A stretch of DNA of 41,784 nt from Candidatus Woesearchaeota archaeon (GTDB taxonomy: Archaea; Nanobdellota; Nanobdellia; Woesearchaeales; GW2011-AR9). Position 1 is the first letter of the stretch, and every line of letters begins with the position of its first letter. The notes under the pieces are model-generated. The model had not been told where the DNA came from. It was given only the letters and a program-made list of their open reading frames with translations, and did not search any database. Positions 7,081-16,102 of this stretch are shown here, one piece after another. The DNA is taken from contig DUGB01000134.1 of assembly GCA_013331555.1 (NCBI GenBank), forward strand, positions 244-42,027. The letters run 5' to 3'. The translations under genes and the position numbers were made by a program.

Positions 7081-8007
7081 TTAAAGATTCTGTCCTTTCT
7101 TTGTTCTGTAGTCATTTAGAATTTGATTGTGATCAAAAAGAAGAGCAGGGACTTCATTAGAGTCACAGAGGATAACTTTTTCAGCATCGCTACCAGGTTT
7201 AATCTCTCCATTGCCGATTCCTGCGTAAGCAATAGAAATACGATGTCCCGGCCGAGGATCACGACCAGGTTTTGAATAAACCCCAACCAGGCGAGTTAAT
7301 TGAACTTGCAATCCCGTTTCTTCTTCTGCTTCGCGGACTGCGGCTTGTTCAGCACTTTCTCCCGGATCAATATGTCCTCCAACAAGGGCGTACCCCAGCG
7401 GTTTTTCTTTCCGTTTGATAATGACGAGTTTATCTTGGTATTCAATTACAATGTCTACTGTGGGAATTGGATTGTCAAATGTCAATTTCTGTATCCTCCG
7501 TTGGCGTTCATGGTGTTGTAGGTAAGATGGAATGTGGGGTGGAACAAGAGCACTAATATCAATACCACGAGCATATAATGCGCGAAGCTGTGTGGCATGA
7601 AGTTCAAGGTGTTCTTCAATCGGTATGATTGTGCAATTATCTTTCCCCCGAAAACAATCTGTAGTGTAAGGATTAGAGGAAAATAAAGTAATAGGATTTT
7701 CAGGTATTCCAAAATGTTCAAAGACATGGTCTGCATAGTGTGGTGGATTGTTGAGATCGTCAATCAAACGATACTGGAAAGGGACTTCCATCCGTGCGGC
7801 GGCGTTTTGAACAATGGGTTTTACCATCTCCCAACATTCTGTGCCACTGAATGGATTACGAGCGCTTATCTCATCAGCAACACCAATTCCAACATTAAGG
7901 CGGTCTACTTTTTGTCTTCGCCAATGATGTTCAATGATTTGTTCAAAAAGATCAACATGGTTGTTTCCTACGAGTTGAAATCGGCCGATGACTAATGCTT
8001 CGGTCAT
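7081..8007 (-). CDS. nadM: bifunctional NadM-type nicotinamide/nicotinate mononucleotide adenylyltransferase fused to a Nudix (ADP-ribose pyrophosphatase-like) domain
   Basis: N-terminal VIGRFQLVGNNH (compare archaeal NadM GRFQPFHxGH) and HATQLRAL (ISSTxxR-like). C-terminal canonical Nudix box GGHIDPGESAEQAAVREAEEETGL. 4-nt ATGA overlap with nadE. Confidence 0.75.
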   Translation of the reverse strand: MTEALVIGRFQLVGNNHVDLFEQIIEHHWRRQKVDRLNVGIGVADEISARNPFSGTECWEMVKPIVQNAAARMEVPFQYRLIDDLNNPPHYADHVFEHFGIPENPITLFSSNPYTTDCFRGKDNCTIIPIEEHLELHATQLRALYARGIDISALVPPHIPSYLQHHERQRRIQKLTFDNPIPTVDIVIEYQDKLVIIKRKEKPLGYALVGGHIDPGESAEQAAVREAEEETGLQVQLTRLVGVYSKPGRDPRPGHRISIAYAGIGNGEIKPGSDAEKVILCDSNEVPALLFDHNQILNDYRTKKGQNL

Positions 8008-9809
8008 GATGTTTGACCTTGCTCATAGCGAGCTCTGATTTTATCAAAATCGTATCTTCCGGTAAAATGGTTGATGATTGTAGGTCGTTCACTGAATCCT
8101 CTTGCTCGAGGATCTTTGACTACAACGATTGGAGCACTTTGTCCAATTTTGTAAACACTCCGTCTGGATCTCTCAAAGACCGTCATGACAATACTTTCAA
8201 ATTGTTCTCGTCCATAAAGATCATATATGGTTCTTCCTTGATCATCACAAGGAAAATAGTCTGGTGTTAATGCTCTTGTGTCATATGCATGCATTAATTC
8301 TACTGGCCCTTTCATTCTCCGGGCAATTTCTGAACAGATACCTGATTCAATAAAATAATCTATTGGATCTTCTTTAGCATCAGGTAATTCTGCTGCTGGT
8401 TTTATGGTTCCATCATAAAGCAAATGGGGGATGACTTCTTTCTCTAAGCGCTGGTTTAAGCGCGTAGCAATTTTATATAATTCAAGTTTTGATAGACTTC
8501 CTAGTTGCTGGTCAACACCAATACTGCCAATATCATGAAAATTGGCCCAGCCTTGGACATTTTCAGTTTCATTACCTGTCGGGCAAATACCACGTCTTGT
8601 TTGACCGTTAGCTGCTGTCAATCCCAAAACACTTCTTCCGACTGCTTGCATCGTTGATCTTTGAAGTGGACTAGGATCATGTCCATACACTTCTCTAAAG
8701 TTTGCAACCATCGCTTCATAAGGACCTTGAATTGGCTCCCAGGTGACATTAACAGCCAACATTTCGGCAAGATGATTTACAAGACCTCTTGAATCAGTAT
8801 TACACTGTGAAGGATTACTGATAAACGCTATTCTTTCTGGTCCTAGAGCGAGATAGGTTAAAACAGCTTCTATGGAGCTATCTAAACCACCACTAAGGTG
8901 GATCTGAGCTTCTTTAATTCCTAAAACGTTGAATAATTCTGTCCGTTCAAAGATCAGTGCATCAATAACTTCATCTTCCCAACAGTTATAGAATTTTGGT
9001 TGAATGGGGTTTGTTGTTGGTTTGTCAACATCAAGTTCAATAATTTGGTAATCTCGAGCAAAACGTTTTAATTCGGCAACAGGAGTTCCTTCACAATCGA
9101 AAGCCAAACTTCCACCATCGTAGATGAGAATATTTTTGATGATATCTCCAACACCAGCAGCGTTGACTGACACAACAGGTATTCTTTTCTCTTTAGCGTG
9201 TCCACCAAATATGCTATATCTTCTTGGTTGTTTATCAGTATAAAAATAAGAATAATTAAGTCCGAAGGCAATTTCTGCTCCTTGAGCTACTCCTTCCGCA
9301 ATAAGATCTCGGTCATGATCTTGTGTCCACCAATCTTCACAAATGGCAACTTGGATTTTTCTTATTTGCCCATCAATTTTTACTTCGATGACTCCAGCTT
9401 CTTGTCCGGGGGTAAAATATTTCACATCTTCATGATGATCATCATTGGCAAGAAGAATTTTATCATAGATATGAATTATTCCTTTTCCGCCTTGAATTAT
9501 CGCAGCGGAATTAGTGATGTCAGGGCGGCCATTTTTTTTCGTTCCTTTAACATCTACGAAGCCAATAATGGCAACCATTCCTTCCGGAACTTCAGGAACA
9601 ATAATTTCTTCGAGAAATTGCTTATTATATCGTACAAAACTAGGAATCTCAAAAGAGCCGCCGCAGCAATAACCGGTAAGAGCTGTTTCGGGACTGACAA
9701 ATACGTGGGCTTTATCATCCTTTGCCCGGCGTAAATCTTCAATGAGCTGAGCGACGTTACCTTCTAAGTCACCACTTATGGGTTTTGTTTGGGAAATTGC
9801 TATTTTCAT
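8004..9809 (-). CDS. nadE: glutamine-dependent NAD+ synthetase (CN-hydrolase glutaminase domain + NAD synthetase domain)
   Basis: N-terminal nitrilase-like domain with VSPETALTGY (Glu) and VAICEDWW (Cys). C-terminal ATP-pyrophosphatase P-loop SGGLDSS. The 601-aa length fits the two-domain NadE. Confidence 0.85.
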   Translation of the reverse strand: MKIAISQTKPISGDLEGNVAQLIEDLRRAKDDKAHVFVSPETALTGYCCGGSFEIPSFVRYNKQFLEEIIVPEVPEGMVAIIGFVDVKGTKKNGRPDITNSAAIIQGGKGIIHIYDKILLANDDHHEDVKYFTPGQEAGVIEVKIDGQIRKIQVAICEDWWTQDHDRDLIAEGVAQGAEIAFGLNYSYFYTDKQPRRYSIFGGHAKEKRIPVVSVNAAGVGDIIKNILIYDGGSLAFDCEGTPVAELKRFARDYQIIELDVDKPTTNPIQPKFYNCWEDEVIDALIFERTELFNVLGIKEAQIHLSGGLDSSIEAVLTYLALGPERIAFISNPSQCNTDSRGLVNHLAEMLAVNVTWEPIQGPYEAMVANFREVYGHDPSPLQRSTMQAVGRSVLGLTAANGQTRRGICPTGNETENVQGWANFHDIGSIGVDQQLGSLSKLELYKIATRLNQRLEKEVIPHLLYDGTIKPAAELPDAKEDPIDYFIESGICSEIARRMKGPVELMHAYDTRALTPDYFPCDDQGRTIYDLYGREQFESIVMTVFERSRRSVYKIGQSAPIVVVKDPRARGFSERPTIINHFTGRYDFDKIRARYEQGQTS

Positions 9810-9838
9810 ATTTTATTGTCTTTTTTACACTTAATACT

Positions 9839-9866
9839 AAGTGTAGTTTACACACTAGTATTTAAA
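9839..9866 (-). promoter_or_regulatory. nadE-nadM promoter: TATA box (minus strand TTTAAATA) abutting an AGTGT-N7-ACACT palindrome (candidate NrtR operator)
   Basis: Plus strand AAGTGT AGTTTAC ACACTA G TATTTAAA (9839..9866), about 50 nt upstream of the nadE ATG (9809). The architecture is identical to 15345..15372. It overlaps a second perfect palindrome, TACACTTA-ATAC-TAAGTGTA, at 9826..9845. Confidence 0.6.
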
Positions 9867-9878
9867 GTTTATGGAAAA

Positions 9879-10877
9879 TTAAAGCTGTGAGCTCAAAAAA
9901 TGCTCAAATTCATGTGCAATCATAGCTAGGTATTCTTTTCCTTCCACTTTTTCGATCATAAACGGAGGTAATGTTTCTATTCCATATCTCCCCGCAGCAA
10001 TCCCTGTACAAATTGAGGCTAAGGAATCAACATCTCCACCCATATATATTGAGACACGCAACGCTTCCATCGTGCTTCGAGCGTGTTTTAGAATATATAA
10101 TGCGCAACCTCCGGTGAGCATTGCATCAGAAGGCAGGCCATTAATCCCAGGCATATTGACGATTGGCTGCGGTCCGCATAAAATTTTATAATCTTCTTTT
10201 TTGAGTTTCTCGGGGGCAGGTAACGTATCTATGACATCAAGTAATTTTTCTGTTTCACAGTCAATGTTTCTGATAAATTGTTTACAATAAGATATTATTT
10301 TCTGTGGATTTCCATCGTGAAGAAGCAGATACTGCGCTGCCCGAGCGACTATGATACTGGCAGCTCTTGCTTTTGGATGGGGATGTGTTGCATCAGCATT
10401 GATAATTGCATAGGTATCAATCAACTCTTCTTGGACATATCCTAAAGGAATTGCTCGCATTGGTGGTGCATTTCCCGGAGATTGATTTTCTTGCTGGGAG
10501 CTTCTTATTTCTTCAATAGTTTTTTCTCCCGTGTATACTTTTTTCATTGCACCATGACCTTGCCGGCCATATCCTTTTCTTTCCTTGTCGCTTTCATATT
10601 CTTGAATCCAAAACTGCACTAATAAATCAGGAGTAAATACTTTTTGAGAACGTAATGCTTTGATGATTCCGATGGTCATCTCCGTGTCATCGGTATAATT
10701 TCCTACTATGTAATTTTCAGCATATTTTCCTTTTCGCGCAGTGATATACTCTGTAAAATCAATATGTTCACGAATCCATTCTCTGCTTTGAAATTCAATA
10801 CCAGCTCCAAAAGCATCGCCAATAGCGATTCCGAATAAGACATTAACAAAATTCATTTTGACTATTGCCTCGAGCAT
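9879..10877 (-). CDS. ADP-ribosylglycohydrolase family protein (ARH/DraG-like)
   Basis: Family motifs GIAIGDAFGAGIEF, NYTDDTEMT and C-terminal MGGDVDSLASI (metal-binding acidic residues). The start lies 5 nt after the stop of the upstream NAD-kinase-like gene. Confidence 0.8.
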   Translation of the reverse strand: MLEAIVKMNFVNVLFGIAIGDAFGAGIEFQSREWIREHIDFTEYITARKGKYAENYIVGNYTDDTEMTIGIIKALRSQKVFTPDLLVQFWIQEYESDKERKGYGRQGHGAMKKVYTGEKTIEEIRSSQQENQSPGNAPPMRAIPLGYVQEELIDTYAIINADATHPHPKARAASIIVARAAQYLLLHDGNPQKIISYCKQFIRNIDCETEKLLDVIDTLPAPEKLKKEDYKILCGPQPIVNMPGINGLPSDAMLTGGCALYILKHARSTMEALRVSIYMGGDVDSLASICTGIAAGRYGIETLPPFMIEKVEGKEYLAMIAHEFEHFLSSQL

Positions 10878-10882
10878 GGTTT

Positions 10883-11796
10883 TTAATCATTTCGCACTCG
10901 GTAGACTTTTCGTTCCGCAGGTTTTATCACTACTTTTCTTCCTGCAGCGAATTCAACATAATCCTGTTCAATCCCATCACTGAAAATTACTCCTTCTTCA
11001 GGCATATTTGAGGTAATCATTAATGGCCTCGCAACTGAAACGGTGCCCGTAACAATTTCTGTTCCAGTTGCTTTTGAAGGAAAAGGCTCACGAACAGCAA
11101 ATTTGAGACAATCTGTATCGCGGGCAAATGATATTTCTCCTCTTTTTCCAGCAGCGAGAGCATATGCTCCGGTAATAATAGACGTGTACCAACCTGTTGA
11201 TCCTGATCCTGTGCTTACAATTATTCCACTAGAAGATTGCCGCTCACTTTTTCCTGCAAATTCAATTTCATATCGTGCTGAGATATGTGTTCTTCGTCCA
11301 ATAAAAAATCATTTAAAGCGTACAGCTCCTCTCCATTTTCCAACACTGCCTGCGCTAAAGTTAGTTTTTCACAAGTATACTTTCCTGCTACCGTTTCTTG
11401 TAACTTTCTGGCAAAGCCATCTGGATAACACGTAGTAAAAACATCATCAAATCGTTCTCGATCTGGATTCACCATTATTACTGGTTGCTCTCCAACATAT
11501 TTGGCCGTATTGACAAATAATCCCGGATCTCCTACAACAACAATTACATCTTTATCCCCTACTTGAAAAGTGGCAAGGTGTTCTTTATTCACTTCCTGAA
11601 ATCTCATTCCACTAGGGACAGCAGACTTGACTTGATTTATTCCTGCAGTATACGCTTGATGCGCTTGCTGGTAAAAGTCAAAATGTTGTCCTCGCGATTC
11701 CAAGAAAAACTTAACCTGAGAAGTTGTGCCGTGTCTGGCAATCAACCCCTCAAGCGCTGTTCTTTTTGTAACCAAAACAATTTTTTCTAAAGTCAT
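10883..11796 (-). CDS. NAD kinase-like protein (COG3199/AcoX-like), reading frame interrupted: needs a -1 shift at T_TTT_TTA (11302..11308)
   Basis: ORF 11221..11796 encodes the N-terminal half (VVVGDPGLF = GGDG-like; ALNDFLL) and then stops. The -1 frame continues ...IGRRTHISARYEIEFAGKSERQSSSGIIVSTGSGSTGWYTSI...VREPFPS...GVIFSDGIEQDYVEF... to a stop at 10883. This includes the hallmark STG-GSTGW motif of the NAD kinase fold. Joined length is about 304 aa. Confidence 0.7.
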
Positions 11797-11811
11797 TTTT
11801 CGTTATGCTCC

Positions 11812-12669
11812 CTAGCGCAATCCTGCCAAGATTTCCGGAGTGATAGTTAGAGTCTCAATCCGCGCGGCATTTCTACCGAGTTCATACAACGCATGGGCAC
11901 GTAATACTTCTGCTGACATGCCATCGTACACGGCAAGTTCTAAGCGTCTTGCATCAGCTCTGATCTTTGCTTCATCCATGTTGTTTCTTCCTTGGAGTTC
12001 AACCAATTGTGCTCGCTGTTCTTCAAGAGCAATACTGTTTGCAAGTTCATTCTCTTTGATTGTTCTTTCTTGTTCAACTGCTCGAGCTCTTCGTTTGTAC
12101 TCTGCATCTGCTGCTTTTTCTAACAATCCTTCTCGATATTCTGCTCCTAATGCTTTAGCAATTTGCGGCGGCGGAACAATTGCAGAGAAATACAGCATTG
12201 TCACTTCTAATCCCAACCCTTTAATCGCTGTCGAATTTTGCACCTCTGCAGACACTTCTGCGGATAATCGATCTGCCATTACCAATAATGGTTCTAACTT
12301 TGTGCTTTGTGTAATTCTCCGTGAAGTTCCTCGTATTCTCTGCACCACATGTTCTGGTAATTTTTGATTGTCATCTTTCAAGTACTGTCTTGTTACCGGA
12401 TTGATGGCGAAATTATAGGCGGCGAGAATTTTCTCTGGGTCAGTTATTTTATACAAGAAACCTCCTTGTAAAGAAACTTCTTGTTTATCTTCACTGGACT
12501 CCGTAAAAGAAAATGGCTGCTCAACAATTGCTGTCCCGGTCAATTCAATACTTGTTCGATGGGGTAAATAAAACCCAGCAATTCCTAATCCAGCGTCAAC
12601 ACTTTTTCCATTAACGACAAATCGGGCGTATTCGGTTGGTGCTGCTTTGAAATATCCTACTAGTTTCAT
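11812..12669 (-). CDS. SPFH/band-7 (prohibitin/flotillin-like) domain protein
   Basis: 285 aa. The N-terminal beta-rich region followed by a long Ala/Glu/Arg-rich helix (AADAEYKRRARAVEQERTIKENELANSIALEEQRAQLVELQ) is typical of SPFH proteins. Tightly packed in the NAD operon: 2 nt from pncA, 15 nt from the NADK-like gene. Confidence 0.6.
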   Translation of the reverse strand: MKLVGYFKAAPTEYARFVVNGKSVDAGLGIAGFYLPHRTSIELTGTAIVEQPFSFTESSEDKQEVSLQGGFLYKITDPEKILAAYNFAINPVTRQYLKDDNQKLPEHVVQRIRGTSRRITQSTKLEPLLVMADRLSAEVSAEVQNSTAIKGLGLEVTMLYFSAIVPPPQIAKALGAEYREGLLEKAADAEYKRRARAVEQERTIKENELANSIALEEQRAQLVELQGRNNMDEAKIRADARRLELAVYDGMSAEVLRAHALYELGRNAARIETLTITPEILAGLR

Positions 12670-12671
12670 CT

Positions 12672-13319
12672 TTATTCCCTCCGTATATATTTTTTAATGT
12701 CTGAAGTTCTGGTTAGAATTGCTCCTTCTGCTTCCCATCTCTTCAATACGTCTTCTTCCGGAAGATTTGGTAATCCTTTTATGGCATCAATTGGTACTAC
12801 AACATCGTATCCTCTTTCCAGAAGTCCTCGTACGGCAAAGTCAACACAAACGTTTGTTGCCACTCCATAAACTACATACTGACAATCACCCAATTCACTC
12901 ACAACACGATCAGTATGTCTATTTCCCGCAAATACATCAAAAGCATCTTTATACAGGACGATGTTACGTGCTTCGCGTAATCTGCTGCTATCGACATCTT
13001 TCGCTTTCCAATCAATACAATACGTATATAGCGCAGCTTGTGGTTTTGTTGCGGGAACAAATTCAACACCCGGTGTTCCCTGCAAGCAATGTGGTGGAAA
13101 AGTGTTCCTGAAATCCGGCGTATCTGATAATTCTGTGGAATCACAGGTATGATAATCGGCAGTATTCACAACAACAATTCCTTCTTGATCTGCAAGTTGG
13201 GTTAGAGATGTTAGATTAGGTTCAATTGCCTCTGCCCCGGCAACATATAATGCACCCTCTCTTCGCATAAAGTCGTGCTGTGTATCTACATTCCAAAATC
13301 TTGTCTTCATGGTATTCAT
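12672..13319 (-). CDS. pncA: nicotinamidase (isochorismatase-fold cysteine hydrolase)
   Basis: WNVDTQHDF (catalytic Asp region), FPPHCLQGTPG (metal-binding His, typical PncA WPxHCvqgt.G) and nucleophile Cys in GVATNVCVDFAV. Adjacent to pncB. Confidence 0.8.
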   Translation of the reverse strand: MNTMKTRFWNVDTQHDFMRREGALYVAGAEAIEPNLTSLTQLADQEGIVVVNTADYHTCDSTELSDTPDFRNTFPPHCLQGTPGVEFVPATKPQAALYTYCIDWKAKDVDSSRLREARNIVLYKDAFDVFAGNRHTDRVVSELGDCQYVVYGVATNVCVDFAVRGLLERGYDVVVPIDAIKGLPNLPEEDVLKRWEAEGAILTRTSDIKKYIRRE

Positions 13320-13351
13320 CCTCCTAAATTGTATTTTTTACACTAAATTTT

Positions 13352-14809
13352 TCATGAAAAAATGGTACGAGTGGCAAATCCATAATCCTCCCGAATCATA
13401 TCTTGTGCTTGCTGTACTCCTTCTGAAACAATAACTTTGTACTGCGTTGCATCTCTCAATTTTGCTAATTGCTCTTTTCTTCGTTCAGAAATTTCAGCGA
13501 TGGTCGGAAAATCATAGACTTGTTCTCCTTTGATGATGATAGGAACAAGTAATCCTTCTGCAGTGTCTCCTTCATTCAGGTATTTGCTGATATCCTCTCC
13601 TTCAAATGCAATGACGTCTCGTTTGTAAAATCCATCTGTGCCTGTTATTCTGTATACTTGTTTTATTCCAGGTAGAGTTGATTTTTCTCTGCTTTCGGAC
13701 AGTTTTCCCCTGAGAATTAATTCTTCTTTGTCATCGTAAAAGGCAGCAAGTTTGTACACTCCTTCCACTGGTTTTGGTGGGTTGACAACAAAAGTTCCTA
13801 ATAAATATTTGTCAATGTCTGCTTCTTCTCTTTCTAATCTCGCAATTTTTCCAGCCGTGAGGTCATCTGAGGCTATCAATGTATATCTTTCTCGTCCATA
13901 TCCTCTGTCTTTCATTTGCTGGTGAATCCAGTGTGCTTGCTGGAGAAGATTGCCACTATCAATACGGAATGCACAATGCTCCAAATTCTCTTCTTCGACA
14001 ATGCTCAATGCAGTCTCAAACGCTTTTTGTAGGTTATAGGTATCTAATAGGAAACACACTTTGTCTCTCAACGTGTTGGTTTGCGCCTTAAATGCTGAAT
14101 ATTCATCAGGATGCAGCATGACATACGAATGCCCATGTGTTCCTCCTACTTTTTCCTGATATTCCATGCCAAAAGCAACATTGGATGAAGCTGTGAAACC
14201 ACCAATTCTCGCGGCGCGCGAATTAAATAAAGCACTCTGTGGACTGCCGGCCCGTCTGCTTCCTCCTTCCAATATAATTTTGTTTGTAACTTCAGCAATA
14301 TCATTGGCAGTAGATGCAACATTAGTTTGGGGATTGATTGTGTTGAGAATCACACTTTCAAAAACCTGCGCTTCTTCAAAACGTTCATGAACTCTCAATT
14401 GATGTTCCTGTGCAAAGAAGATTGTGCCTTCCGGCATTCCATAGACATCTCCTGTAAAACGGAGTTGTTCTACCCAATCTAAAAATTCAGGATCAGTAAT
14501 GCCCTGAGCTTCTTGTAAATATGTTTTTAATTCTGTATTCCCTCTTGCTTCCAGAAAATATGCCGCTATTTGCTCTAGCCCAGCATTAATTAGAAAATCA
14601 CGCTTGACTCGTTCATCGTATTTTACGCCTTCTCGTTCGAATTCACCAACAACTTTATTTGCCGGCATTCTTCGTACAACGAGATCAAAAATCGCTTGTC
14701 TACCTGCAATTTTTTCTTGTTGATTAGCATGAGCCATGGAATATTCATAATAATCTCCTACAGCAACTGCTAAATCTGTAGTAAATTCAAGCGGGTTAGG
14801 ATTTCTCAT
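13352..14809 (-). CDS. pncB: nicotinate phosphoribosyltransferase (NAPRTase family, long form)
   Basis: 485 aa. Family-like motifs GDYYEYSMAHA (TDxYxxtM), EGGSRRAGSPQSA, GGFTASSNVAFG, GGTHGHSYVM, LLDTYN, FRIDSGN and STLPGIKQVYR. The pairing with PncA favours NaPRT over NamPRT. Confidence 0.7.
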   Translation of the reverse strand: MRNPNPLEFTTDLAVAVGDYYEYSMAHANQQEKIAGRQAIFDLVVRRMPANKVVGEFEREGVKYDERVKRDFLINAGLEQIAAYFLEARGNTELKTYLQEAQGITDPEFLDWVEQLRFTGDVYGMPEGTIFFAQEHQLRVHERFEEAQVFESVILNTINPQTNVASTANDIAEVTNKIILEGGSRRAGSPQSALFNSRAARIGGFTASSNVAFGMEYQEKVGGTHGHSYVMLHPDEYSAFKAQTNTLRDKVCFLLDTYNLQKAFETALSIVEEENLEHCAFRIDSGNLLQQAHWIHQQMKDRGYGRERYTLIASDDLTAGKIARLEREEADIDKYLLGTFVVNPPKPVEGVYKLAAFYDDKEELILRGKLSESREKSTLPGIKQVYRITGTDGFYKRDVIAFEGEDISKYLNEGDTAEGLLVPIIIKGEQVYDFPTIAEISERRKEQLAKLRDATQYKVIVSEGVQQAQDMIREDYGFATRTIFS

Positions 14810-15243
14810 TGGAGTCTTAACTCCATGAATGGTAAGCTGTCTAAGCTTTCTGCATCTTCAGCCTTTATTGGCAACTGTCTTGTTTTTGCTACATCAACAT
14901 CTATCCAAGAAGCATCTTTCATTTTTGAAGCAAAATAACTTCCAATGCGTGCTGAGAAGTATTGAACAAGGTGTCCAGTTCGTTCATCTATTTCTGTTGC
15001 TATTGGTTGATACCGTGCTGCTGGTAAAGATAATCCATGCTGTCCATACATTAAGAGGGCTACATCTTCCGCTGTTGGTTTGCACTCTCTGAGGGTGGGA
15101 AGAATTACTCTTCCTGCTTGTTGAGAAAGAAGCTCTCTTGTTTCCACATTTGTGATGAGGACTCGAGCTTCTTGCCAACTGTCTAACTTAGGAGTGTATT
15201 GTTCTACTTCTGTTCTTAGTACGGCGGCATACATGTTTTTCAC
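14806..15243 (-). CDS. hypothetical protein, first gene of the NAD operon
   Basis: 145-aa ORF. 4-nt overlap with pncB suggests translational coupling. No motif recognised. Confidence 0.4.
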   Translation of the reverse strand: MKNMYAAVLRTEVEQYTPKLDSWQEARVLITNVETRELLSQQAGRVILPTLRECKPTAEDVALLMYGQHGLSLPAARYQPIATEIDERTGHLVQYFSARIGSYFASKMKDASWIDVDVAKTRQLPIKAEDAESLDSLPFMELRLQ

Positions 15244-15344
15244 ATTTTAATATTGTTTTGATTACACTAACATTTTGATAAAAATAACCCGTGAGTGTAT
15301 TCTGGTTTGATAATTTATCAAATTGATTATTTTTCGCATGTTTA

Positions 15345-15372
15345 AAGTGTATTATTGACACTTATATTTAAA
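15345..15372 (-). promoter_or_regulatory. promoter of the pncB-pncA-...-ARH operon: TATA box abutting an AGTGT-N7-ACACT palindrome (candidate NrtR operator)
   Basis: Plus strand AAGTGT ATTATTG ACACTT A TATTTAAA, with the same spacing as at 9839..9866. Further same-spacing sites occur at 15252..15268 (ATTGT-N7-ACACT) and 15384..15400 (AGTAT-N7-ACACT). Confidence 0.55.
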
Positions 15373-15439
15373 TGTTGTGAAATAGTATTAAAATTACACT
15401 AAGTAAGTGTACTATACCACTGACTCAGAAAAAATGTAG

Positions 15440-16102
15440 TTATCCTTTTCTCAGAAATGAATACAACGCCGCAGGACGATGAGGTCCTTCTTGCTTTTTC
15501 TTCTTCAAATCTTTAAGAATTTGTAATTCTGCAATTTTTTTGCGAAAATTACGTTTGTCAAGTTTTTTACCAAGAATAATCTCATATGCTTTCTGTAATT
15601 CGGTGAGTGTAAATTCATCCGGCATAAGTTGGAAAGCAAAATCTGTTTCCCAAATTTTTCCACGAAGCCGGTTTACGGCATAGTCAATTATTTCTTTATG
15701 ATCAAAAGCAAGTTTTGGTAAATCATAGACGGAGTACCAAGTGAATAAATTTCCTTGCTGAAAATCTATTTTAGATGATTCAACTAAACCGTAATAGACA
15801 ATAGAGATTGTACGAATACGAGTATCACGTTCAAGATTGCTTCCAAAGGTGTATAATTGTTCGAGAAAAACTCCACTGGAATTGATACCCCCTTTCTGTT
15901 TTAAAGCAGTTCGAGCAGTGTCCTCGATAGTTTCCTCGTAGCGAACAAATCGTCCGGGAAGAGCAAATTTACCGAAATAAGGCTCATCCTGGCGTTGAAT
16001 AAGACCAACTTTAAGATCATCGTTTTTAATGGTGAAGAGAACAACATCAACGGCAATACCGGGACGTTTAAACTGGAAAATATCACTCTCCTCTTTGGCC
16101 AT
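15440..16102 (-). CDS. nrtR: NrtR-like transcriptional regulator (degenerate Nudix domain + C-terminal winged helix)
   Basis: The Nudix fold has a degenerate box (GRFVRYEETIEDTARTALKQKGG lacks the REuxEE glutamates). The C-terminal ~70 aa are basic and helical (FTLTELQKAYEIILGKKLDKRNFRKKI). Sits directly upstream of the NAD salvage operon, as NrtR genes do in bacteria. Confidence 0.65.
   Translation of the reverse strand: MAKEESDIFQFKRPGIAVDVVLFTIKNDDLKVGLIQRQDEPYFGKFALPGRFVRYEETIEDTARTALKQKGGINSSGVFLEQLYTFGSNLERDTRIRTISIVYYGLVESSKIDFQQGNLFTWYSVYDLPKLAFDHKEIIDYAVNRLRGKIWETDFAFQLMPDEFTLTELQKAYEIILGKKLDKRNFRKKIAELQILKDLKKKKQEGPHRPAALYSFLRKG

Follow-up and report, generated by a model that had tools for sequence, protein, structure and literature searches.

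In the window analysed here (the whole stretch of DNA, 41,784 nt), a gene for an NADK2-type kinase is split in two at a T_TTT_TTA heptamer, and we consider that a recent 1-nt deletion in the T run inactivated this gene, or left it at most leaky, with a probability of roughly three in four. The finding is an ordinary one: the split is real, and most likely reflects a recent inactivating mutation. A sequence-only reading of the same DNA had offered three explanations without choosing among them: a programmed −1 frameshift, a homopolymer or assembly error, and a fresh pseudogene. Of these, the pseudogene fits the results best, and the results count against the other two.

An ATG at 11796 opens a minus-strand ORF of 191 aa (11796..11221) that ends in TAA and whose C-terminus reads ...ALNDFLLDEEHISQHDMKLNLQEKVSGNLLVE*. 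Residues 1-166, which align with full-length homologues, form the N-terminal half of an NADK2-type protein, including its GDPG and ALND motifs; the last 25 residues are out of frame. The ORF length had been given correctly in the sequence-only reading, but the ORF was said to end soon after ALNDFLL, whereas the zero frame continues for 25 more codons. The C-terminal half, including the STGSGSTGW motif, is encoded in the −1 frame of the same strand (11302..10883; 139 codons plus TAA). This frame reads IGRRTHISARYEIEFAGKSERQSSSGIIVSTGSGSTGW... from 11302, and it closes at a TAA (10885..10883); the next gene begins 5 nt further on, with an ATG at 10877. The proposal that the −1 frame carries the conserved second half of the protein down to that stop was borne out by alignment of the 139 codons with homologues.

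The frames join at T_TTT_TTA (T6 followed by A; 11308..11302, minus strand), the inferred site of the 1-nt deletion. Zero-frame codons at the junction are GAT (11310-08), TTT (11307-05) and TTA (11304-02), followed by TTG; the heptamer thus lies at the ORF junction in the zero-frame phase of an X_XXY_YYZ site. Both coordinates (plus-strand 11302..11308) and frames agreed with those first proposed for the split. A TGA in the −1 frame (11311..11309, minus strand) lies directly 5′ of TTT TTT ATT GGA and sets the 5′ limit of the shift window; because it directly precedes the T run, a shift that restores the protein is possible only within the heptamer. In a scan of the relatives' orthologues, the second match at the split kinase locus contained one TGA. 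No ATG, GTG or TTG is present in the −1 frame for 94 codons, until an ATG at 11020 that opens an ORF of 45 aa. The downstream half therefore cannot start alone, and the earlier statement that it has no plausible independent start was correct.

When the ORF and the −1 frame were joined at the heptamer, they gave one full-length protein of 304 aa. This protein has thousands of homologues of ~305 aa at 99-100% coverage (best E = 4e-119, 62-63% identity). In an alignment of 24 sequences, all invariant columns are preserved in it, both before and after the junction. The two ORF halves are parts of one gene, and annotation should mark one disrupted gene, not two genes. The predicted tryptic peptide across the trans-frame junction is LTLAQAVLENGEELYALNDFLIGR; its zero-frame tryptic counterpart is LTLAQAVLENGEELYALNDFLLDEEHISQHDMK.

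The kinase-like protein had no Pfam match. NCBIfam NadK equivalogs matched at E = 9e-11, far below their cut-offs, and the joined protein reached none of the curated NAD-kinase cut-offs, whether from Pfam or from NCBIfam. Comparison of a family profile with solved structures gave human mitochondrial NADK2 (C5orf33; PDB 7r4j, 7n29) as the best match (E = 2.4e-16, in two stretches); matches to bacterial NadK/PpnK were weaker (E = 7.5e-6 to 5e-3). The NADK2 match spans the N-terminal part, plus ALN(D/E)xFIG with SSG...TGTGSxxW. These profile matches suggest that the family belongs to the NADK2-type branch of the NAD kinase superfamily. The original label "NAD-kinase-like" was right; more exactly, the protein is NADK2-type and the partner of an SPFH gene.

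The NE/D motif is present as an invariant ALND (N162, D163), aligned to ALNE of NADK2, and the frame break sits directly behind it. The glycine-rich motif STGSGSTGW, which only the −1 frame encodes, corresponds to TGTGSKAW of NADK2 in the alignment; missing from the zero-frame product is the region aligning to NADK2 residues 221-281 (NE/D and TGTGSxxW motifs). At the GGDG position, the protein and its close archaeal relatives read GDPG (11521-11535, residues 88-92 here), with Asp displaced one position early and Pro in its usual place; most other family members, and most bacterial ones, have GQDG, GPDG or GRDG. With the exception of the GGDG position, the motifs are as in C5orf33 homologues, in which Trp replaces the Tyr of classical NAD kinases (PMC3535332), and Trp is likewise kept in the present family. 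Unlike human NADK2, the prokaryotic protein, a putative kinase, has ~305 aa and no NADK2 insert; GGDG is GDPG in the archaeal clade, and the gene is frameshifted in the present genome. A search of the 87%-complete genome for a canonical NAD kinase with PF20143 (NAD_kinase_C) gave no match, so that the genome may have no NAD-kinase-type gene besides the split one. A role in anti-phage defence was also considered and rejected, as PADLOC matched neither the kinase nor the SPFH protein.

The kinase gene is the partner in a conserved SPFH-kinase pair that lies within an NrtR-headed NAD salvage cluster. The SPFH/Band 7 gene (PF01145; 11812..12669, minus strand) is intact and located 15 nt upstream of the split gene. 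An SPFH gene was directly upstream of the kinase-like gene in all seven close orthologous loci, and directly upstream on the same strand in 78 of the best 80 loci across Bacteria and Archaea (loci of the pair survey: L011-L016, L031, L034, L036-L115). SPFH-kinase loci span many bacterial phyla and, among archaea, Woesearchaeota and Heimdall-, Hod- and Methanosarcinales-type lineages. Full-text literature searches found no paper on SPFH together with NAD kinase. An NADK2-like family that sits behind SPFH with such regularity is a more interesting object than the frameshift.

The NAD cluster extends on one strand from 7081 to 16102, in an archaeal-looking genome. At its head is a gene for an NrtR-type regulator (15440..16102, minus strand) with a Nudix domain and an NrtR winged helix (PF21906, E = 1.6e-27). 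Its other members are a 145-aa ORF without family match, pncB, a pncA-like nicotinamidase/isochorismatase gene, the SPFH gene, the split kinase gene, and genes for an ADP-ribosylglycohydrolase, NadE and a Nudix-domain protein. The NrtR-headed setting recalls the system treated by Rodionov et al. 2008 (PMC2330246); that study treats Bacteria, whereas the host here looks archaeal, and it lists nrtX and nrtY without assigning them a function. At the locus of the closest orthologue (L031 935-5059; 63% identity, from the same sequencing study as the present genome), the SPFH-kinase pair is present and is preceded by a NAD-synthase/2OG-Fe(II) oxygenase fusion and by a protein with a weak CTP_transf_like (nucleotidyltransferase family) match; the NAD context is retained there with different partner genes.

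Homopolymer runs are classic sites of indel error, and the split could in principle be a sequencing or assembly artefact, the true genome having an extra base and an intact ORF. The reality of T6 was judged by comparing independently assembled public contigs. The source bin (1.36 Mb, 142 contigs, 87% complete; the window is contig C107) has its closest named homologues of the kinase in Candidatus Woesearchaeota bins, and the gene-bearing contigs come from groundwater metagenomes. The exact 191-aa product was called on 12 contigs, and nine places were compared in DNA. Eight of these were 100% identical to the window over the entire shared stretch, T6 included, and the ninth (L007) departed only at a chimeric contig end. 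A contig from another sample (P0122/L035) showed the same truncation. In all, 10 or more independent contigs, derived from several samples, carry the T6 allele, and each is 100% identical over the shared stretch. The contigs were ENA ANAN16 scaffolds (several SAMN samples), k141 MEGAHIT re-assemblies, Logan SRR3989342 and JGI 3300025317, and represent four assembly pipelines (authors' scaffolds, MEGAHIT, Logan, JGI). At one end, two of the contigs pass into unrelated sequence (L007 from position 1085, L035 over its first ~180 nt), with a few mismatches close to the switch, and are probably chimeric there.

The protein collection held no full-length protein of >63% identity that could represent an intact allele, and a scan of JGI metagenome contigs for T6 or T6 plus any base found only T6. 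No strain variation was available for dN/dS, all contigs being 100% identical apart from the chimeric ends. A crude genome-wide scan for similarly split ORF pairs gave 11 candidates; Pfam analysis of five of the 11 revealed no second clear one-domain gene split at a homopolymer, which indicates that indel errors are not widespread in the assembly. A T6 run is also short for systematic short-read error. Given that these contigs, from different samples and four pipelines, all agree on T6, an error in sequencing or assembly is very improbable. The frameshift is genuine DNA and appears fixed in the population sampled. As all contigs come from one clonal population, its age can hardly be judged from fixation.

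Orthologue comparison, suggested as a check in the sequence-only reading, gave a uniform result: every orthologue examined was unshifted. All 23 homologues aligned with the split gene are in one frame. An orthologue was found in 5 of 61 relatives, each as one open frame, and in 8 genomes of a 401-genome sample of the phylum, all intact. The best 80 loci from a one-genome-per-species collection of Bacteria and Archaea each gave a single tblastn segment. Thus, the shift is not conserved; the genomes compared included none from the same genus, and the shift was seen in one clonal population only. The kinase gene itself is missing from about 97% of the 401 phylum genomes sampled, indicating that loss is its usual fate in the lineage and that it is dispensable there. 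At the junction site, orthologues read NDLFIG, NDFFIG or NDFLIG, and the first two dominate the family. The closest orthologue has GAT TTT TTC GTA GGA, and in the intact homologue P0008 this stretch is identical to the predicted junction, ALNDFLIGRRTHISARYEI. The junction site is prone to mutation.

The downstream half showed no decay. Its 139 codons contain no stop and no indel; the C-to-N identity ratio was 1.117, as compared with 1.078 ± 0.158 for intact homologues. Among 49 strongly conserved columns it deviates in 2 (intact mean 1.72), and 49% of intact homologues deviate at least as often. Neither relaxed selection nor further lesions were found in the downstream half. A frame without decay implies that the lesion is young or that low-level translation of this half continues; the undecayed C-terminal half fits a very young lesion and continued frameshift translation equally well. 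As secondary lesions are absent, the pseudogene status of the gene derives solely from the frameshift; a pseudogene in this state would have to be very young.

A frame that is intact in orthologues is disrupted here, in real DNA, and a fresh pseudogene is the best fit; the uniformly unshifted orthologues agree with that proposal, whereas the further lesions expected in the split copy were not found. The ancestral site would have been GAT TTT TTT ATT (DFFI) or GAT TTT TTA ATT (DFLI), and loss of one T (from TTT TTT) or of one A (from TTA ATT), whichever base it may have been, would have produced the present GAT TTT TTA TTG. Standard decoding would then yield the 191-aa product, which lacks the C-terminal half and the glycine-rich NAD-binding motif; their absence would presumably inactivate the kinase. 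Because a deletion in the T run leaves T_TTT_TTA automatically, the heptamer is explained by the mutation itself and is not a signal. It may allow at most a little unprogrammed −1 slippage, which would yield traces of full-length protein. The split gene resembles homopolymer-indel pseudogenes of reduced genomes in the loss of a T-run base, the intact orthologues and the loss of the gene in most relatives; it differs from them in having no secondary lesions so far. Should the gene be a young pseudogene, it captures gene loss under way in a reduced DPANN-type genome, with the kinase broken while its SPFH partner and the remaining NAD salvage cluster are still intact.

An alternative is programmed −1 frameshifting on U_UUU_UUA, giving the full-length protein in a fixed proportion to the 191-aa form, an arrangement that selection would maintain. 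P-site tRNA-Phe and A-site tRNA-Leu(UUA) would re-pair on UUU UUU to give ...ALNDFL-IGRRTH... The heptamer lies in the right phase exactly at the frame junction, with the −1-frame TGA immediately 5′; the predicted junction is identical to that of P0008, and the downstream half is fully conserved. The shifted allele appears to be fixed, an intact one having turned up neither in the protein collection nor in the JGI contigs, and the PF20143 search detected no further NAD kinase in the genome. In eukaryotic systems, −1 slippage on U_UUU_UUA is efficient (HIV-1 gag-pol). Archaeal −1 frameshifting does exist: the α-L-fucosidase gene fucA1 of Saccharolobus solfataricus is the only reported archaeal programmed case; its full-length product was demonstrated, at about 10% in vitro, and the gene has rare codons as well as a putative stem-loop downstream (PMC8211752). 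The likeness to fucA1 lies in a metabolic gene in two ORFs, the second in the −1 frame, with a short overlap and a homopolymeric X_XXY_YYZ heptamer; the split kinase differs in being known from sequence alone, and no downstream RNA structure is predicted for it.

Several results argue against a programmed shift. It would be confined to one species, all examined orthologues being unshifted, and the zero-frame stop lies 26 codons downstream without any look of design. No stimulatory structure was found 5-9 nt past the heptamer. The downstream 109 nt and 62 nt gave MFEs of −12.7 and −4.7 kcal/mol (z = +1.23 and +0.86), and 179 and 164 of 200 dinucleotide shuffles, respectively, folded at least as well; both stretches are thus less stable than shuffles. 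The sole recurrent element in the folds was a 6-bp hairpin, CATATC-N7-GATATG (11287..11269, minus strand), located 14 nt past the heptamer as the sequence-only reading described. To judge from these predicted folds, the hairpin is no credible stimulator. A Shine-Dalgarno-like purine tract, GGAGAGGAG (11326..11334, minus strand), lies 17 nt upstream of the heptamer and encodes a conserved G-E-E; it is conceivable as an upstream stimulator of slippage. Stimulation in dnaX works at a spacing of 10-14 nt, and the 17 nt here is longer. In 1156 crude ORFs of the genome, slippery-phase TTTTTTA was observed 95 times, as compared with 110 expected from codon frequencies. Since the in-frame heptamer is common and not avoided, efficient slippage on it without further help is unlikely in this host; moreover, a 1-nt deletion in the T run makes the heptamer in any case. 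The proposal of a programmed −1 frameshift was therefore supported neither by the orthologues, nor by folding, nor by heptamer frequency, and we regard it as unlikely. It is similarly doubtful that T_TTT_TTA is a working −1 site on which the archaeon relies for its only NADK2-type kinase. If it were, this would be the second archaeal −1 frameshift case after fucA1, and a frameshift mutation would have been tolerated through landing on a slippery heptamer, a possible first step toward programmed frameshifts. If full-length protein is made, a stimulator-free heptamer that rescues a fresh deletion would show how recoding sites start.

Rescue could also occur at the RNA level, through a polymerase that slips on T6 and adds a U, or the halves could be made separately as a two-piece enzyme. 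Transcriptional slippage does restore frames in some bacteria; however, the run here is only 6, and known slippage-prone runs have ~9 or more A/T. The break separates the N-terminal from the C-terminal part of the fold, as would suit a two-piece enzyme, but it lies inside the conserved NE/D motif rather than in a linker, and the downstream half has no start codon for 94 codons. Either form of rescue is highly improbable. A recent inactivating deletion in the T run remains the preferred reading.

ARAGORN predicted seven tRNA genes in the 1.36-Mb genome, five of them with predicted introns, and a check of Leu(UAA)/Phe re-pairing was consequently uninformative. The low count may reflect tRNA genes missing from the bin, or unusual introns missed by ARAGORN. 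Elsewhere in the bin, the minus strand of contig C83 carries a 138-aa ORF (reverse-strand offsets 8341-8755) with a zinc-ribbon-like motif, and a −1 frame of 199 codons (8736-9333). The two overlap at T AAA AAA AAG, which is a site of the A_AAA_AAG type. Pfam gave no match; the layout resembles that of −1-frameshifted IS transposases.
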